DNA of 64,000 bases from Rhizomicrobium sp. (GCA_049964915.1 JBMFWV010000001.1:13596-77595), one strand, 5' to 3'. Numbered from the stretch's first letter, positions 9,686 through 31,205 are shown. A program made the numbers and translations. Notes: generated by a model from the sequence alone, not told the origin.

Positions 9686-12600
9686 ATGACACCTGAAAAC
9701 GCAATTCGCGCCGGATCCGCCGGCGCTGCCGCTGTCGCGTCTGACGAAGATACCAAGGCCACTGCATGCTTGCGCGCGGGCGCAGCCCTGATACCCGCGG
9801 CGCGGCGCGACCTTGCCGCGTTCTTTGACGACTTCTACGCGGGCGCCTCGCCACAGGATATCACCCGTTACACCCCGAAAAGTCTTGTGGAGCTCGCCGA
9901 GCGGGTGTTCGCGGCAACAACCCGCAGAGCCGAAGACGAAACACATGTCGAAATATTCGCGTTTCGCGCGGAGCGTGAGGACGGACCGGTCGATGAGACC
10001 GTGTTACTGGCCGTCAACGACGACCGGCCCTTTCTGTTCGACTCGCTGATCGGCGAGGTGAGCTCACAAGCCGCTCATATTCACGCCCTGTTTCATCCCA
10101 TCCTTACGACAGTACGCGATGACGCCGGACGGCGGGCTACCAGTGGGCGAAAGCTGCGCGAAAGCGTGATCGTGGTGGCGCTGGAAGCAACCACCGACGA
10201 ACAGCGCAAAGCCGCGCTCCTGCGCGGGGCCCAGGAGGTATTTTCCCAGGTACGCGTTGCCGTACGTGACTGGAAGGCGATGCAGACGCGCCTCGCAGAG
10301 ACCATAAGCACCCTGAAATCGGTACCGCCGGCGATCGCCTCCGATGAGTTCGCGGAAACCTTGTCCTTCCTTACCTGGCTGGGTGACAACCACTTCACCT
10401 TTCTGGGCTGTCGCGACTATGCCTATGACGAGGCTGCCGGCAGGCTAGATGCGATCGCCGACAGCGGTCTTGGAGTATTGAGCGATATCGAAGCACGGGT
10501 CATCCACAGGGGCGCTGATCGCGGCGCCCTGAGCCCGGATGTCCGTGAATTCCTCACGGCCCCCTCACCACTTATCATCACCAAATCCAACGAACGCAGC
10601 CTCGTGCACCGTCGTGTGGTGATGGATTACGTCGGTATCAAGATCTTTGATGCCGACGGGCGCCTGACCGGAGAGCGTCGTTTCGTTGGTCTGTTCACTT
10701 CAAGCGCCTATTCCCGGCGCCCCTCGGAAATCCCTCTGCTGCGTCTCAAGGTCCAACGCGTCAAGGCCCGGGCACCGCTGGCACCCGACAGCCACGACGG
10801 CAAGGCACTTTCACATATTCTGGATACCTTTCCGCGTGACGAGCTTTTCCAGGCGACTGAAGACGAAGTCTTCACCACGGCGATGGGTATCCTGCGACTG
10901 GGCGAGCGACCGCAGGTTCGGGTTTTTCTGCGTTTCGACCGCTTCGACCGCTTTGTGTCTGCGCTCGTGTTCGTGCCACGGGACCGCTATGACACTCATA
11001 TCCGGGAAAGTATCCATCAGCTCTTGGCGCGACGCTTCAACGGCCGCGTCACCGCGTCAACGCAGATCCTTGATGATTCCATGCTCGCGCGCGTGCATTA
11101 TATCGTCGGTCGTAACGAAGGTGCGCGCCCCGACGTCGAGCTGCACACCTTGGAAGCCGATATCCGCGCGGCGATCCGCACCTGGCAGGATGGCTTTGCC
11201 GACGCTCTTGCCAACGAACATGGCGAGGCCGAGGGGGGCCGTCTGGCGGCTCTCCATGTCCTGGCCTTCCCGCCACGCTATCGTGACGCATTTTCGCCTG
11301 AAGAGGCAGTTCGCGACCTCGATGAACTGCTTGATCTGGCCAAGCTGAAGGGCGATGCCGGCGTCCGCGCCCGTGCCTACCGCGCGGCACGCGATGAACA
11401 CGGCGCACTTAGACTTAAACTCTACGCGATCGGCTCGGTACTGCCACTTTCCGCCAGTCTTCCGGTCTTCGAAAATCTTGGCTTCCGCGTCATCGCCGAA
11501 GATTCCTACACCCTCGAACTCGATCTTGGTGACAGCAAAACCCCAGCAGCAGTTCTTGATTTCGAGATGATGCGTGCGGATGGCACCGCAGTTGATCTTG
11601 ATGCCATTAAGCAAAGGCTGGAGGATGCCTTCGACGCAGTGGTGTCAGATGTTGCCGAATCGGACGGTTTCAACCGGCTGGTCATTTCTGCCAACCTCTC
11701 ATGGCGTGATGTCACCATTCTGCGGGCGGTAGCCAAATATCTCCGCCAGGCCGGGATCACCTTCAGCCAGGACTATATGGAGGATGCGCTCGCTCGCAAT
11801 CCGGATATTGCCGGTCAGCTGGTGGAACTGTTCTGCACCCGTTTCGATCCGGCCCTCAGCAACAAGAACCGCAAGGAGCGCCAGAGCGACATTGAAAAGC
11901 GCATCGATGCGGCCCTGGCCGACGTTCCCAGTCTGGACGACGACCGGATTATTCGTCGCCTGCGCAATGTCATCGACTGCGCTTTGCGTACCAACTTTTT
12001 CCAGCGTGACGAGAACGGCGCCCCAAAGCCTTACCTGTCGATCAAGCTGGACAGCCGGCGCCTCGACGAGCTGCCCGCGCCGCGTCCGCTGGTGGAGATT
12101 ACCGTGTACTCGCCGCAGGTGGAGGGCGTGCATCTGCGTTTTGGCAAGGTGGCGCGCGGCGGCATACGCTGGTCAGACAGACGCGAAGACTTCCGTACCG
12201 AAATCCTCGGCCTGGTAAAGGCACAGCAGGTCAAAAATGCGGTCATCGTTCCGGTTGGTGCCAAGGGGGGCTTCTTCCCCAAGCGGCTGCCGCTCAATGC
12301 GACCCGCGAAGCGGTACAGGCTGCAGCGATCGAGGCTTACCGAACCTTTATTGATGCGCTTCTGGACCTCACCGACAACATCGATCATGCCGGCCACGTA
12401 GAGCCACCCTGCGATGTTGTCCGCTGTGACGACGACGATCCCTACCTTGTGGTTGCCGCCGACAAGGGTACAGCCACGTTTTCCGATATCGCCAACGCCA
12501 TTGCTGAGGCGCGTGGCTTCTGGCTTGGCGACGCCTTTGCCTCGGGAGGCAGCCATGGCTACGACCACAAAAAAATGGGCATTACGGCGCGTGGCGCCTG

Positions 12601-23944: not shown

Positions 23945-26878
23945 ATGACGAGTCAATCCGATCCCGCTGTCTCCAATTCGATTCTGGAGACGACGTCCTT
24001 CTTGTTCGGCAGCAATGCCGCTTTCGTTGAAGACCTGTACCGCCAATTTCTTGAAAACCCAGCGAGCGTTGACCCCAGCTGGCGCGACTTCTTCCTCACC
24101 CTCGGCGAGAAGGCACTGTCGCCAACCCAGCTCGGCAGAGGCCCTGCGTGGCGCCGGGATCTTGCTCCGACCCTGGTTCGTGACGAGCTGACCGATGCGC
24201 TAACCGGCAACCTGACGGTCACCTCTGCTTCCCAAGCCCCAACTTCTGCGCTGAACGAGCAGACGTTGCGGGCTGCAGCGCAGGACTCGATCCGCGCCAT
24301 CCAGCTCGTACGAGCCTATCGCATCATCGGCCATCTCGCGGCCAAGCTCGACCCGCTCGGACTAGCGGAAAAGCCTCATCTGCCGCAGCTGGAGCCCTCA
24401 TTCTATGGCTTTGGCGAGACAGATCTTGACAAGCCGGTATTCATGGACGGCGTGCTCGGCCTTTCCATGGCCAAGCCACGGGAAGTCGTCGACCTTCTCA
24501 CCCGCACTTATTGCGGCCGCATCGGCTACGAGTTCATGCACATTACCGATCCGGAACAGAAAGACTGGCTGCAGCGGCGGATCGAAGGGCCCGATAAGGA
24601 GATCTCGTTCACTCCCGAGGGCAAAAAGGCGATCCTGAACAAACTGGTCGAGGCCGAGGGCTTCGAAAAATTCTGCGGTCTGCGTTTCTTGGGTACCAAA
24701 CGTTTTGGCTTGGATGGTGGAGAAGCCGTAATCCCGGCGCTCGAGCAGATCATCAAGCGCGGCGGCCAGCTCGGCGTGCAGGAGATCGTAGTTGGCATGT
24801 CCCACCGTGGACGGCTCAATGTTCTGGCTAACGTTCTTGCCAAGCCTTACCGACAGATCTTTCATGAATTCCAGGGAGGCAGCGCCAATCCCTCCGAGGT
24901 TCAGGGCTCTGGCGATGTCAAATATCACCTTGGCGCATCTTCAGATCGGGAATTTGACGGCAACAAGGTTCATTTGTCGCTCACGGCCAATCCCTCACAT
25001 CTGGAAGCCGTCAATCCCGTCGTCCTCGGCAAGGCTCGCGCCAAACAGCGTCAGCTCGCGGACAATATTGAGCGCTCCAGTGTGATGCCCTTGCTTATCC
25101 ATGGCGATGCCGCATTTGCCGGGCAGGGCGTGGTGTCCGAGTGTTTTGCGATGAGCGGCATCAAGGGCTTCCGCACCGGAGGTACCATTCATGTGATCGT
25201 CAACAATCAGATCGGCTTTACCACGGCACCGATCTACTCACGCTCTTCGCCCTACCCGTCCGACGTGGCGCTGATGGTTCAGGCGCCCATTTTCCATGTC
25301 AACGGCGATGATCCGGAAGCGGTGGTGCACGTTGCACGCATCGCGGCAGAGTTCCGTCAGCTGTTCCACAAAGACGTCGTCATCGACATGTTCTGCTATC
25401 GGCGCTTCGGCCATAACGAGACCGACGAGCCATCCTTTACCCAGCCGCTGATGTATCGGGCCATCAAGGACCATCCTACAACACTTGAGCTTTATGCGCG
25501 TCAGCTCGTCAGCGAAGGCACATTAAGCGACGAGGACGTGAAGGCGATGAGTGATGCCTTCAGTCAGCGTCTCGATGACGAATATCAGGCGTCCAAATCC
25601 CACCGTCCCAATCGCGCCGACTGGCTCGATGGACGCTGGCAGGGACTTTCGGCAGCACCAGAAGGCGACCGCCGCGGCGACACTGCTGTCGCCGATGCAC
25701 TCTTGCGCAAGGTGGGCACGGCCCTGACCACCATTCCCGAAGGCTTCAATGCTCATCGCACCATTGTCCGGCAGTTGCAGGCCAAGGCGCACATGTTTGA
25801 GACCGGCGTCGGGATCGACTGGGCGACGGCTGAGGCCCTCGCGTTAGGAACTCTGCTTGAAGAAGGCTATCCCGTGCGCCTTTCCGGCCAGGATTCAGCG
25901 CGTGGCACATTTAGTCAGCGCCACGCCATGCTGGTCGATCAGCAGACGGCGGCGCGCTACTTCCCGCTCAATCATATCAGTGACAGCCAGGCCGAGTTCG
26001 AAGTGATCGATTCTCTGCTCTCTGAAGAAGCCGTCGTCGGCTTTGAATATGGCTATAGTCTGGCCGAGCCGCGTGCACTTGTGCTGTGGGAGGCGCAGTT
26101 TGGTGATTTTGCCAATGGTGCACAGGTCATGATCGACCAGTTCCTGTCGTCCGGGGAAATGAAGTGGCTGCGCATGTCGGGGCTCGTCCTGCTGCTACCG
26201 CACGGCTATGAAGGTCAAGGCCCGGAACACTCATCCGCCCGGCTCGAACGCTACCTCCAGCTCTGTGCGCAGGATAATATGCAGGTGGCAAACTGTACGA
26301 CGCCTGCCAATTATTTCCATATTCTGCGGCGTCAGATGCACCGCAAGTTCCGCAAGCCATTGATTCTGATGACGCCGAAGTCCCTTCTGCGTCACAAGCG
26401 GGTGGTATCCAGCCTTGAAGAATTGGGACCGGGATCGAGTTTTCACCGCGTTCTGGACGATGGCGCCGAGCGCGATCCCTCCTCCGCCCTCAAACTGGCG
26501 GCGGATTCCGAGATCCGTCGGGTCGTGCTGTGCAGCGGCAAGGTCTATTATGATCTGTTCGAGGCGCGCGAGGAACTCGGCGAGCAGCGCATCCAACTGC
26601 TGCGTGTGGAGCAGCTCTATCCTTTCCCAACCGGACCGCTGGGTCAGGCACTTGAACGCTTTGACCGGGCGCAGATTGTCTGGTGCCAGGAGGAACCGCA
26701 AAACCAGGGAGCCTGGAGTTTCGTCGCACCGCGGATTGAAAAGGTGCTGGCCGATCTCGGACGCAAGGATCGTCCGCGCTACGTCGGCCGCCACGAATCG
26801 GCGTCAACGGCAGCGGGCCTCATGAGCCAGCATGCTGCCGAACTCAAGGCCTTCCTGAACGAGGCGTTGTCACTTTGA
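23945..26878 (+). CDS. sucA: 2-oxoglutarate dehydrogenase E1
   Basis: GTKRFGLDGGE, GMSHRGRLN, GDVKYHLG, NPSHLE, HGDAAFAGQG, GHNETDEP, GQDSARGTFSQRH, PHGYEGQGPEHSSARLER; start set at ATG 23945. Confidence 0.98.
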   Translation: MTSQSDPAVSNSILETTSFLFGSNAAFVEDLYRQFLENPASVDPSWRDFFLTLGEKALSPTQLGRGPAWRRDLAPTLVRDELTDALTGNLTVTSASQAPTSALNEQTLRAAAQDSIRAIQLVRAYRIIGHLAAKLDPLGLAEKPHLPQLEPSFYGFGETDLDKPVFMDGVLGLSMAKPREVVDLLTRTYCGRIGYEFMHITDPEQKDWLQRRIEGPDKEISFTPEGKKAILNKLVEAEGFEKFCGLRFLGTKRFGLDGGEAVIPALEQIIKRGGQLGVQEIVVGMSHRGRLNVLANVLAKPYRQIFHEFQGGSANPSEVQGSGDVKYHLGASSDREFDGNKVHLSLTANPSHLEAVNPVVLGKARAKQRQLADNIERSSVMPLLIHGDAAFAGQGVVSECFAMSGIKGFRTGGTIHVIVNNQIGFTTAPIYSRSSPYPSDVALMVQAPIFHVNGDDPEAVVHVARIAAEFRQLFHKDVVIDMFCYRRFGHNETDEPSFTQPLMYRAIKDHPTTLELYARQLVSEGTLSDEDVKAMSDAFSQRLDDEYQASKSHRPNRADWLDGRWQGLSAAPEGDRRGDTAVADALLRKVGTALTTIPEGFNAHRTIVRQLQAKAHMFETGVGIDWATAEALALGTLLEEGYPVRLSGQDSARGTFSQRHAMLVDQQTAARYFPLNHISDSQAEFEVIDSLLSEEAVVGFEYGYSLAEPRALVLWEAQFGDFANGAQVMIDQFLSSGEMKWLRMSGLVLLLPHGYEGQGPEHSSARLERYLQLCAQDNMQVANCTTPANYFHILRRQMHRKFRKPLILMTPKSLLRHKRVVSSLEELGPGSSFHRVLDDGAERDPSSALKLAADSEIRRVVLCSGKVYYDLFEAREELGEQRIQLLRVEQLYPFPTGPLGQALERFDRAQIVWCQEEPQNQGAWSFVAPRIEKVLADLGRKDRPRYVGRHESASTAAGLMSQHAAELKAFLNEALSL

Positions 26879-27642
26879 GTAGGACCGGCACAACCGTGCC
26901 GCATATGAAGCTCGCCTATCGTGTGGTGGGGCCGCGTCTGTATATCCGCCATCGCGCGAAGCGCGCATGGCGTAAGGCGCGCGACGGCCATGAAGGCGAG
27001 CTAAAGCTACTCTCGTCCATTGTCCCGCGGGATCGCGTGGCAATGGACGTCGGAGCCAATCGCGGCAATTACACATTTTTCCTCTCGCAATTGGTTCCCA
27101 AGACAGTCGCCTATGAACCATCACCGCCCCTGGCGCGCTTTCTGCGCGAGGCTTGCCTGACCGGTGTGGATGTGCGTGAAGCCGGTGTCTCCGATCTGTC
27201 GGGAATGCTGACCTATTGTGTTCCGCTGAACCGACACTCTCGCCCACAATACAATATCGGCTATCTTGGCTCAGGACTTCCCGCCGGTACCCCTGGCATC
27301 GAGCTTCCCGTTCGAGTGGTGCGACTGGACGAGGAAGATCTCGGAGACGTCGGCTTCATCAAGATAGATGTCGAGGGCCACGAGTTCCAGGTGATCGAGG
27401 GTGCCCAGGGGCTGCTGCGCCGCTGCCGCCCCAATCTGCTGGTAGAGATTCTCGAGGGACGCGGGAACAGACAGCAGATTATACAAAATCGTACGGCCTG
27501 CCTGCTGGACCGCCTTGGCTATGAGATTTATGTCTTCGCGCGTGGTGCCTTGATGCCGCTAAGCGATGCCCCGTTAAGCCAGAATACGATGAACTACATT
27601 TTCCTGCCTCGGAACATGGCAGGACCTGGAGACCTTAGATGA
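26875..27642 (+). CDS. FkbM family SAM-dependent methyltransferase
   Basis: [11 protein letters not shown] motif, [22 protein letters not shown]; TTG overlaps the sucA stop and TGA overlaps the sucB ATG. Start could be slightly downstream. Confidence 0.88.
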
Positions 27643-30532: not shown

Positions 30533-30574
30533 AGCAAGCAGTCCGTGCGGGCACCTACCCCGCAGCAGGCAATG

Positions 30575-30608
30575 GAAAGGCGGTCCGCGTCTGGCGCGGC
30601 CGCCTTTC
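30575..30608. terminator. Intrinsic terminator hairpin, probably bidirectional
   Basis: GAAAGGCGG-T-CCGCG-TCTGG-CGCGG-CCGCCTTTC, with A/T flanks on both sides, between lpdA/sORF and the convergent tRNA. Confidence 0.75.
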
Positions 30609-30641
30609 AGATTCTGATACATCTGTTACGCAGGCAGAAAG

Positions 30642-30970
30642 TGGTGCGGGCGGCCGGACTTGAACCGGCACAGGCCTTTCGGCCCTACGGATTTTCATAC
30701 CACTTCGGCTTTCGCCGCCCGCATCGCCTTACCCTTGGGTCTGCGACGGGTTCGTGGTCTGGACTATCCCTTCACCCTGGCGTCGCCGCTTTAGGTGCTG
30801 CCCGTCTAGTCTCTACACCTTCCGCCGGAGCTGCGCTCTGGCGGCTTGGCTCGGGATTGCCAGCAAAGGATTCCCCGAATTTGAGCAGTTCTGCACCGCA
30901 GGTTTCCCTGCGGGCACTCAAGTCAAATGGCTTTTAAGTCCGTTGCGTCTACCGATTTCGCCACGCCCGC
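30642..30970 (-). tRNA. trnL-UAA: tRNA-Leu(UAA), intron-containing: exon 1 30970-30936, exon 2 30695-30642; 89 nt spliced, CCA encoded
   Basis: Acceptor stem GCGGGCG/CGCCCGC-ACCA, D arm GGCGAAATCGGTAGACGC, anticodon stem ACGGA/TCCGT with loop CT-T|AA-AA after joining, long variable arm AGGGCCGAAAGGCCT, T arm GCCGGTTCAAGTCCGGC. Confidence 0.95.
30696..30935 (-). ncRNA. Group I self-splicing intron (240 nt), trnL-UAA/IC3-like, no ORF
   Basis: P1 ACUU/GAGU with U-G splice pair; P2 CCGCAGG-GAAA-CCUGCGG; P3 CUGCUC/GGGCAG; P element AAAUUCGGGGAA, Q GGCAAUCCCGAGCC; R GUAGAGACUA and S AAGGGAUAGUCC (P7 GACUA/UAGUC); ACCAC/GUGGU closing; CGGC-GAAA-GCCG; terminal G. Confidence 0.93.
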
Positions 30971-31177
30971 AGAGCCGGCCCGATACATAGCCTTAAGCGG
31001 GCATAGGGCCAACCCGGCAAGAGCAGATTGTGCGCTGGTTTGCGACGGCCTTCAGCGATGGTGACGGGTGGCCGCCGCTGGTGATTTGAGTTGCGGACAT
31101 AATTTTATACAACCTGCAGTAGATTGCTCATGTCTTTTACGAGTATTATCATATACTTAACGCACTACAGAGCTGCA

Positions 31178-31205
31178 TTGACAGACGCCGCGCCCTGACT
31201 ATAGT
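31178..31205 (+). promoter_or_regulatory. Sigma70 promoter of rpsD
   Basis: TTGACA-N16-TATAGT, about 55 nt upstream of the ATG. Confidence 0.75.

Follow-up and report, generated by a model that had tools for sequence, protein, structure and literature searches.

A group I intron of the Leu.3Ug class predicted in the tRNA-Leu(UAA) gene of a Rhizomicrobium species

The tRNA-Leu(UAA) gene of cyanobacteria and plastids contains a group I intron, the Anabaena/Nostoc type, which was reportedly described in 1990 by Xu et al. and by Kuhsel et al. and which is inserted at a site identical to that of the intron analysed here. Other introns, in tRNA-Ile(CAU) of Azoarcus and in tRNA-Arg(CCU) of Agrobacterium and Bartonella, are said to have been reported by Reinhold-Hurek and Shub in 1992 and by Paquin et al. 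in 1999. The first tRNA-Leu(UAA) group I intron found outside the cyanobacteria was reportedly that of a deep-subsurface gammaproteobacterium (by Vepritskiy et al. in 2002), and is said to measure ~231 nt and to possess an 11-nt receptor motif in P8; we liken it to ours by description only, and its host belongs to a different class. The cyanobacterial/plastid type and the Rhizomicrobium intron have the same helices and the core CAAAUUC-GGGGAA...GGCAAUCC-GAGCCAAGCC...AGGUG-AGAGACU-GACGG...AGUCC. However, they are only ~59% identical, their G+C contents are 42% and 60% respectively, and the exons read GUAGACGCUACGG in the cyanobacterial type as opposed to GUAGACGCAACGG in ours. The introns of tRNA-Arg(CCU) and the CAU tRNAs likewise share the IC3 core with our intron, with up to 76-78% identity in the core, and those of tRNA-Ile(CAU) and tRNA-Arg(CCU) also bear GAAA loops on P2 and P9, but they occupy other host tRNAs and are inserted further 3' in the anticodon loop.

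In a survey of 80,413 bacterial assemblies, 5292 tRNA genes were found to be split by group I introns; Leu.3Ug is one of the four classical types, with Proteobacteria mentioned, as is a Proteobacteria-only variant, Leu.3Cg (Williams 2020, bioRxiv 10.1101/2020.01.27.920355). Of the introns in tRNA-Ile(CAU) and tRNA-Arg(CCU), BbgpI self-splices (PMC7717549). Here, we analysed a 64,000-nt stretch of DNA from Rhizomicrobium sp. (GCA_049964915.1 JBMFWV010000001.1:13596-77595), hereafter the window. Its intron agrees with Leu.3Ug in host tRNA, site (CUU/...g/AAAA), U at -1, terminal G, IC3-like size and lack of an ORF; there is no difference of kind, the window allele differing in its longer P6a and P9a, and its genus being represented mostly by metagenome bins. 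Judging from the sequence and its homologues, we give a probability of about 0.9 to the reading that this is a working group I intron of the IC3 type and that the gene it interrupts is resident and the genome's sole tRNA-Leu(UAA) gene.

The split gene and the fold of its intron

On its minus strand, the window has a complete tRNA-Leu(UAA) gene (30642-30970), with the anticodon interrupted as U|AA by 240 nt, just as the initial annotation had read it (Table 1). Exon 1 (GCGGGCGUGGCGAAAUCGGUAGACGCAACGGACUU) comprises the acceptor 5' strand, the D arm, the 5' strand of the anticodon stem and C32-U33-U34. Exon 2 (AAAAUCCGUAGGGCCGAAAGGCCUGUGCCGGUUCAAGUCCGGCCGCCCGCACCA) provides A35-A36, the remaining anticodon arm, the long variable arm, the T arm, the acceptor 3' strand, the discriminator A and an encoded CCA. 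Joined, they form an 89-nt class II cloverleaf, which ARAGORN calls tRNA-Leu(taa); on the unspliced DNA, ARAGORN with intron search (-i) places the intron between U34 and A35 ('gactt-Intron-aaaat'), i.e. in the host tRNA and at the position that define Leu.3Ug. The insert reads AAAAGCC...GUGGUAUG, and its G+C (60.4%) is close to that of the genome (59.5%), in keeping with the host-like composition noted earlier. No homing endonuclease ORF lies inside the 240-nt intron, again as had been claimed: the ribozyme helices take up its full length and leave no room for one, and the sole ORF of >=80 aa overlapping it is antisense and extends over exon 2 as well (30545-30937).

Table 1. Features of the tRNA-Leu(UAA) locus, in window positions
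Feature	Position	Strand	Description
Exon 1 of tRNA-Leu(UAA)	30936..30970	-	35 nt, ends ...GGACUU; ARAGORN -i
Group I intron (predicted)	30696..30935	-	240 nt; begins AAAAGCC, ends ...GGUAUG; terminal (omega) G at 30696
Exon 2 of tRNA-Leu(UAA)	30642..30695	-	54 nt, begins AAAAUCC; ARAGORN on joined exons
P1	30916..30939	-	5' strand 30934-30939 (exon ACUU + intron AA); internal guide UUGAGU 30916-30921
P2 hairpin	30893..30915	-	9 pairs, all with compensatory changes; GAAA tetraloop 30903-30906
P3 5' strand CUGCUC	30883..30888	-	pairs with GGGCAG 30798-30803; pseudoknot with P7
P4 and P5	30851..30878	-	P4 of 6 pairs around a minimal P5 (2 C-G pairs, 6-nt loop); both 100% paired
P6 and extended P6a hairpin	30817..30850	-	P6a 95% paired, 4/5 pairs with compensatory change
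P7 5' strand G-(A)-GACUA	30807..30813	-	pairs with UAGUCC 30761-30766
P8/P8a, GCGA loop	30773..30797	-	P8 99.5% paired
P9 domain	30699..30758	-	P9 ACCAC/GUGGU, extended P9a, P9b CGGC-GAAA-GCCG (loop 30710-30713)
Weak promoter-like TTGGCC-17-TATGTA	30984..31012	-	13 nt upstream of tRNA 5' end; inferred by reading
G+C-rich hairpin	30578..30612		between convergent lpdA and tRNA gene; read from sequence

We drew helices P1 to P9b by hand on the window sequence and tested them on an alignment of 98 homologous tRNA-Leu(UAA) introns. The fold is far beyond chance: across its 62 pairs in 13 helices, standard pairs occupy 94.1% of the cells as against 83.9% in shuffles, two-sided compensatory changes are seen at 38 of the 62 pairs versus 24, and none of 500 shuffles attains any of the observed pairing measures. 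Sliding the partners by 1-3 columns lowers the pairing to 29-43%. The minimum-energy fold of the intron alone (RNAfold; z = -3.3) reproduces P2, P4, P5, P6a, P7, P8, P9a and P9b, with all non-knotted helices reappearing in it.

The elements of the group I core listed in the initial annotation (P7 GACUA/UAGUC, the terminal G, the U.G pair at the splice site and the GAAA loops on P2 and P9b) are all present. P3, P4, P6, P7 and P8 are paired in 99.8%, 100%, 100%, 100% and 99.5% of the cells, with P3 and P7 forming the pseudoknot; compensatory changes are found in four of the six P3 pairs, and P8 shows a swap of A-U to G-C in 25 sequences. In P7, which is invariant in five of its six pairs across the 98 sequences, the GACUA/UAGUC helix is extended by one G-C pair beyond a bulged A. 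P7 of group I introns is the guanosine-binding site, and the same is therefore expected of the predicted P7 here. The CCUAA...GG segment of P8 is presumably a variant of the 11-nt GAAA receptor, many homologues having the canonical CCUAAG...UAUGG in its place.

At the 5' splice site, U34 (30936), the last base of exon 1, pairs as a U.G wobble with the G of the guide UUGAGU; the intron ends on G (30696). This U.G pair is found in 98 of the 98 homologues, a set selected to have U at -1 with G as the last intron base; both features occur together in 101 of 104 tRNA-Leu(UAA) calls made by ARAGORN. P1, earlier given as 4 bp, in fact has six pairs, four from the exon (including the wobble) and two from the first intron bases; 97.9% of its cells are paired and two pairs have compensatory changes. 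The very short P5 was correctly described, as it consists of only two C-G pairs, and so was the extended P9 region, where P9a is ~25 nt longer than in most genus-mates. P9 (94% paired) and P9b (99.7%) both have compensatory changes, with P9a being variable and 56% paired as aligned. P6a, too, exceeds that of most genus-mates by ~12 nt; the longer P6a and P9a arms are common to the window and to two relatives, G072 and G015. In the literature, IC3 introns are delineated by a length of ~200-300 nt, lack of a P5abc extension, GAAA-capped P2 and P9, and absence of an ORF. Our intron, with its 240 nt, two-pair P5, GAAA loops at 30903-30906 and 30710-30713 and no ORF, conforms to this description; lengths in the tRNA-Leu(UAA) intron family range from 201 to 336 nt. 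The intron is predicted to be catalytic, whether by itself or with protein assistance, and to be spliced out in the cell; the minimal P5 and the poorly conserved P9a leave room for such assistance.

Genomic setting, need for splicing and detection

The gene lies between lpdA and rpsD, with a sucA-FkbM-sucB-lpdA operon converging on it and rpsD diverging from it 290 bp away. The adjacency to rpsD is common to genus-mates with and without the intron, which identifies this as a resident tRNA-Leu site. A competing explanation is that it is instead a 'spare' tRNA-Leu with an intron, brought in on an integrative element by which the host's own gene was destroyed. Precedents can be cited for such an event: in the genus-mate G023 the 5' half of a tRNA-Leu breaks off after CUUAAAA, with an ORF for an integrase SAM-like domain behind it; in G071 there are additional intron-bearing copies together with a remnant of the window-type allele; and a complete intron-bearing tRNA-Leu is found on more than 1200 plasmids. 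However, no tyrosine integrase (PF00589) is encoded anywhere on the 98.7-kb contig of the gene, the genome yields just one tRNA-Leu(UAA)-like match and hence no broken half, and the position 290 bp from rpsD is the very site used by intronless genus-mates, with the sucAB-lpdA operon as the other flank. We accordingly regard a spare gene as very unlikely and a resident one as the preferred reading.

The host is an alphaproteobacterium, as had been proposed: the two-piece alpha_tmRNA model (RF01849) matches with 242 bits, and among 14 control genomes it matches Caulobacter only; ARAGORN (-m) gave no tmRNA. The promoter-like sequence listed in Table 1, a site that our promoter consensus scan did not call, has a counterpart in genus-mates, where a TAT(A/G) box recurs at equal distance upstream of the tRNA 5' end. 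The hairpin at 30578-30612 is a possible two-way terminator, though not one called by a strict terminator scan. We also observed, in the window, an ORF for an FkbM-type methyltransferase between sucA and sucB (26875-27642, plus strand; Pfam PF05050, E 3.8e-17) and a near-consensus promoter-like TTGACA-16-TATAGT with 11/12 matches, 55 bp upstream of rpsD (31178-31205, plus strand).

The draft assembly spans 3.7 Mb on 264 contigs, has an estimated completeness of 100% and yields 37 tRNA genes. ARAGORN assigns it tRNA-Leu genes for CAA, CAG and UAG and the intron-bearing gene as the sole one for UAA; BLAST returned one match only, i.e. no second copy or fragment of the tRNA-Leu(UAA) exons in the genome, and the genome has no other match to the Rfam group I intron model RF00028. 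UUA is used sparingly, 1.8 times per 1000 codons, yet occurs in 507 of the 947 ORFs of >=400 codons. With a single tRNA-Leu(UAA) and UUA codons in use, the intron would have to be removed for UUA to be read, although a draft of 264 contigs with 37 tRNA genes could have an intronless tRNA-Leu(UAA) on missing sequence. We propose the following course: the gene would be transcribed as a ~330-nt precursor, in which the intron would fold into the P1-P9 core; free guanosine held in P7 would then attack the phosphate after U34, marked by the U.G wobble of P1. The terminal G (30696) would next occupy that site, whereupon the 3'-OH released on U34 would attack the 3' splice site, joining ...GGACUU to AAAAUCC... 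and restoring the UAA anticodon. RNase P and the usual 3' trimming would complete the tRNA, which is predicted to be the cell's only reader of UUA.

One could argue, to the contrary, that the intron is a relic that no longer works and the gene a pseudogene, with UUA read in some other way or by a copy missing from the assembly. The draft state of the assembly with its 37 tRNA genes, an RF00028 score under the gathering score, and the metatranscriptomes of relatives would agree with this. In the last of these, a 338-nt contig from a 90-95% identical relative, found in two mine-drainage metatranscriptomes, spans the entire unspliced gene, a point that counts in favor of transcription, and no spliced joint was found in the assembled contigs of four runs, these contigs being from relatives, possibly containing DNA and being poor for mature tRNA. 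The organism itself was not found in public RNA runs, the best word share being 0.29. Against a relic, every core helix is intact and all the invariant positions of the 98 homologues are kept; the joined exons form a clean tRNA whose CCA is encoded; UUA is present in over half of the long ORFs and the completeness estimate is 100%; and G072 (95% identical) and G015 (92%) keep the same allele with compensatory changes. A dead gene is thus highly improbable, and we favor a working intron. Separately, a 97-nt metatranscriptome contig (run X29 record 4) matches window positions 30644-30719 with one mismatch, which correspond to exon 2 and the last 24 nt of the intron, and ends in adaptor at the discriminator base; it may represent a 3'-trimmed yet unspliced precursor of a close relative.

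The prediction that standard annotation overlooks this gene was borne out, for default ARAGORN reports no tRNA, and Rfam at gathering thresholds no match, in the whole 64-kb window. Both of the checks suggested earlier find the gene under other settings. ARAGORN with intron search recovers it as a split tRNA-Leu(taa). RF00028 (Intron_gpI) at a permissive threshold gives a match at 30744-30945 over the full length of the model (positions 1-253; E 3.9e-9), which supports the assignment, but its 41.3 bits are under the curated gathering cut-off of 50. In the same Rfam search the halves of the tRNA reach 24.5 and 22.4 bits. Both shortfalls have published parallels: tRNAscan-SE 2.0 'was not designed to detect' such introns (PMC8450103), and the Rfam group I model, built without bacterial seeds, under-scores bacterial introns, and cut-offs of 18-20 bits have been used (Williams 2020, bioRxiv 10.1101/2020.01.27.920355). 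As standard tRNA finders and Rfam thresholds miss the gene, the genome would seem unable to read UUA. The practical value of the find thus lies in annotation, as pipelines would report a genome without tRNA-Leu(UAA); the same gap concerns about 7% of the sampled alphaproteobacterial genomes and 15% of those of the genus.

Distribution and ancestry

Among the 229 species genomes of the genus, 34 have a full-length tRNA-Leu(UAA) gene with a homologous intron; the remaining matching genomes mostly have an intronless gene, and several carry both forms. The nearest alleles are those of G072 (95% identical) and G015 (92%), with all others in the genus being 73-82% identical. Across the class, 27 of 400 evenly drawn alphaproteobacterial genomes (307 genera) have a full-length homologue, a count that includes one copy whose match a longer intron splits in two. 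We further scanned 185,579 species genomes with the core 21-mer GAAGGUGUAGAGACURGACGG and obtained at least 118 distinct matches. Among the matches listed (118 distinct), at least 79 are in tRNA-Leu(UAA), at least 42 of these in Alphaproteobacteria; 13 loci that ARAGORN called 'Phe(gaa)', 'Ile(tat)' or 'Ser', off by one base or arm, were relabelled as Leu(UAA) by exon similarity. The listed alphaproteobacterial hosts include the cultured Bradyrhizobium lablabi CCBAU 23086, Bradyrhizobium sp. RDT10 and LMTR 3, Sphingomonas yantingensis DSM 27244, Rhodovulum steppense DSM 21153, Paracoccus sp. ME4 and Falsigemmobacter faecalis. Other tRNA-Leu(UAA) matches listed are from Burkholderia (cultured members among them), Paraburkholderia, Gammaproteobacteria, Acidobacteriota, Vulcanimicrobiota (Eremiobacterota) and other phyla.

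These counts overturn two elements of the initial annotation, namely that such introns are rare outside cyanobacteria and that this one might be novel, the class Leu.3Ug having already been catalogued with Proteobacteria included (Williams 2020). As its kind is catalogued and common in related bacteria, the find is an ordinary one: the Rhizomicrobium intron is one more member of a widespread class. It adds one datum to the documented picture of a tRNA-Leu(UAA) intron that is common beyond the cyanobacteria, comes and goes among close relatives and moves as whole alleles, and by itself opens no new question.

Besides tRNA-Leu(UAA), the 21-mer matched, among the matches listed, introns in tRNA-Arg(CCU) (at least 8) and in CAU tRNAs (at least 7). 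The former are the loci L042, L046, L058, L077, L110, L125, L137 and L142, and the latter L035, L095, L103, L108, L117, L122 and L131. It also matched tRNA-Arg(UCU) and, by ARAGORN call alone, His, Thr, Asn, Lys and Ser tRNAs, in many phyla.

In the intron tree, the window intron forms a group with those of G072 and G015 (support 100/98), and its nearest relatives are genus-mates and other Alphaproteobacteria. The introns of the genus are spread over several groups, with some mixing of phyla, even as the labels remain clustered (26 changes versus 52.7 in shuffles); the labels of the host tRNAs are clustered as well (22 versus 39.5). Presence of the intron at the orthologous site is patchy: on an rpsD tree of 21 loci it requires at least 5 changes, at least 2 of them imposed by branches with strong support. 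By rpsD the nearest relative is G071 (98% identity, flanks 94-95%), yet at the same site it has a different allele, with a 214-nt intron, a gene that is 79% identical and exons that differ too. We noticed a second copy of this allele on another contig of G071 (L170, L171; G071:C146, G071:C124) and, beside its lpdA, a remnant of the window-type allele made up of the last ~33 intron nt and exon 2 at 94-95% identity. This combination of a different allele with a window-type remnant implies that whole alleles were replaced by recombination. The intron, then, comes and goes at the rpsD-adjacent site in the genus, at least partly by whole-gene replacement.

The initial annotation had offered horizontal acquisition followed by amelioration or an old proteobacterial lineage as alternative origins. 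A recent acquisition from a cyanobacterium or plastid-type source, then ameliorated, would account for the insertion site, which by established knowledge equals that of the cyanobacterial/plastid intron, and for the G+C of the intron following that of the flanks across 100 loci (r = 0.70), loci that are not phylogenetically independent. We compared the window intron with its own type and with 45 metagenome introns of the GGTGCAGAGACTCGACGG / GGUGCAGAGACUCGACGG type, both sets having been picked by pattern: it is 59% identical to the latter (max 63%) as opposed to 76.5% to the former (max 92%), and a single branch with support 100 separates the two types. By their exons and core the GGTGCAGAGACTCGACGG-type introns are presumably of the Anabaena/Nostoc (cyanobacterial) type; NCBIfam gave housekeeping names only for 10 ORFs flanking them, and a literature text search did not find the Anabaena core sequence. 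The identity of 59% to the cyanobacterial type against 76% to its own makes a recent cyanobacterial transfer unlikely and, with the nearest relatives being genus-mates and other Alphaproteobacteria, we hold such an import to be improbable in the extreme. What appears to fit best is an ancient lineage that evolved separately and was often exchanged laterally. The choice between the two origins first offered is thus partly decided: recent import of the cyanobacterial type becomes unlikely, while presence at the site is patchy and whole alleles move among near relatives.

Mobile copies, remnants and a change of host tRNA

An unlikely though conceivable elaboration is that the intron-bearing alleles spread in the genus mainly as whole genes on integrative elements that recombine into the rpsD-adjacent site, with the window allele being a settled product of this process. 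In line with it are the allele replacement between the near-identical genomes G000 and G071, the broken intronless genes beside an integrase-like ORF and the remnants of broken intron-bearing genes. The intron may, moreover, be kept because it splits the anticodon-loop sequence used by such integrases and thereby shields the gene from insertions. However, the broken intron-bearing remnants argue against complete shielding; the window intron itself starts with AAAA, and the DNA at its 5' junction still reads GGACUUAAAA.

Two intronless tRNA-Leu(UAA) 5' halves, L014 (G023:C2, 1500-2166) and L030 (G001:C209), end directly after CUUAAAA, and in L014 an AT-rich stretch separates the half from an ORF whose product has a phage-integrase SAM-like domain (Pfam PF14659, E 2.5e-6). 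Such halves suggest that elements break the tRNA-Leu gene in the anticodon loop. We also found 3' remnants of intron-bearing tRNA-Leu genes at L187, L188, L008, L192 and L193 (G225:C16, G222:C1, G010:C59, G052:C67 and G356:C107), with break points at various places, such as the 3' strands of P7 and P3 and the beginning of GAAGGUG. They look like the debris of insertions or rearrangements rather than the products of one attachment site, and we dropped the idea of a single site-specific attachment site inside the intron, as the remnants break at no fewer than 4 different places. In G014:C31, two intron-bearing tRNA-Leu(UAA) genes (1539-1828 and 11709-12001) are only 10 kb apart, and G210, G133 and G231 likewise have two.

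A complete, unannotated intron-bearing tRNA-Leu(UAA) gene is also present on the plasmid pCTX-M3 (L194, NC_004464.2, 61.8-62.1 kb) and in 1272 other plasmid records. On these enterobacterial resistance plasmids the gene adjoins tmrB (annotated 'AAA family ATPase') and aac(3)-IId. It belongs to the same family and has the same site as the window gene, but represents a different sub-type with 77% identity to the window over two thirds of the gene, and it resides on mobile DNA, in contrast to the housekeeping chromosomal context of the window copy. Together with its flank, the plasmid gene is 90% identical to its counterparts in two MAGs, one of Bradyrhizobiaceae and one of Novosphingobium.

In an alphaproteobacterium of another family, a homologous intron (~70% core identity) follows U34 of tRNA-Lys(UUU) (L012, G034:C38, ~1391-1689), with the junctions ...CUGACUU|CGUUACGG...GUGGUGGAG|UUAAUCAG...; by its sequence this is a predicted switch of host tRNA at the equivalent anticodon position. 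Finally, matches to the intron core were seen in two phages: an unannotated one in Gordonia phage Daredevil (NC_048021.1, 41897-42011; 85% over 115 nt) and one in the annotated psbA group I intron of Synechococcus phage S-CBWM1 (NC_048106.1, 112527-112582; 88% over 61 nt).
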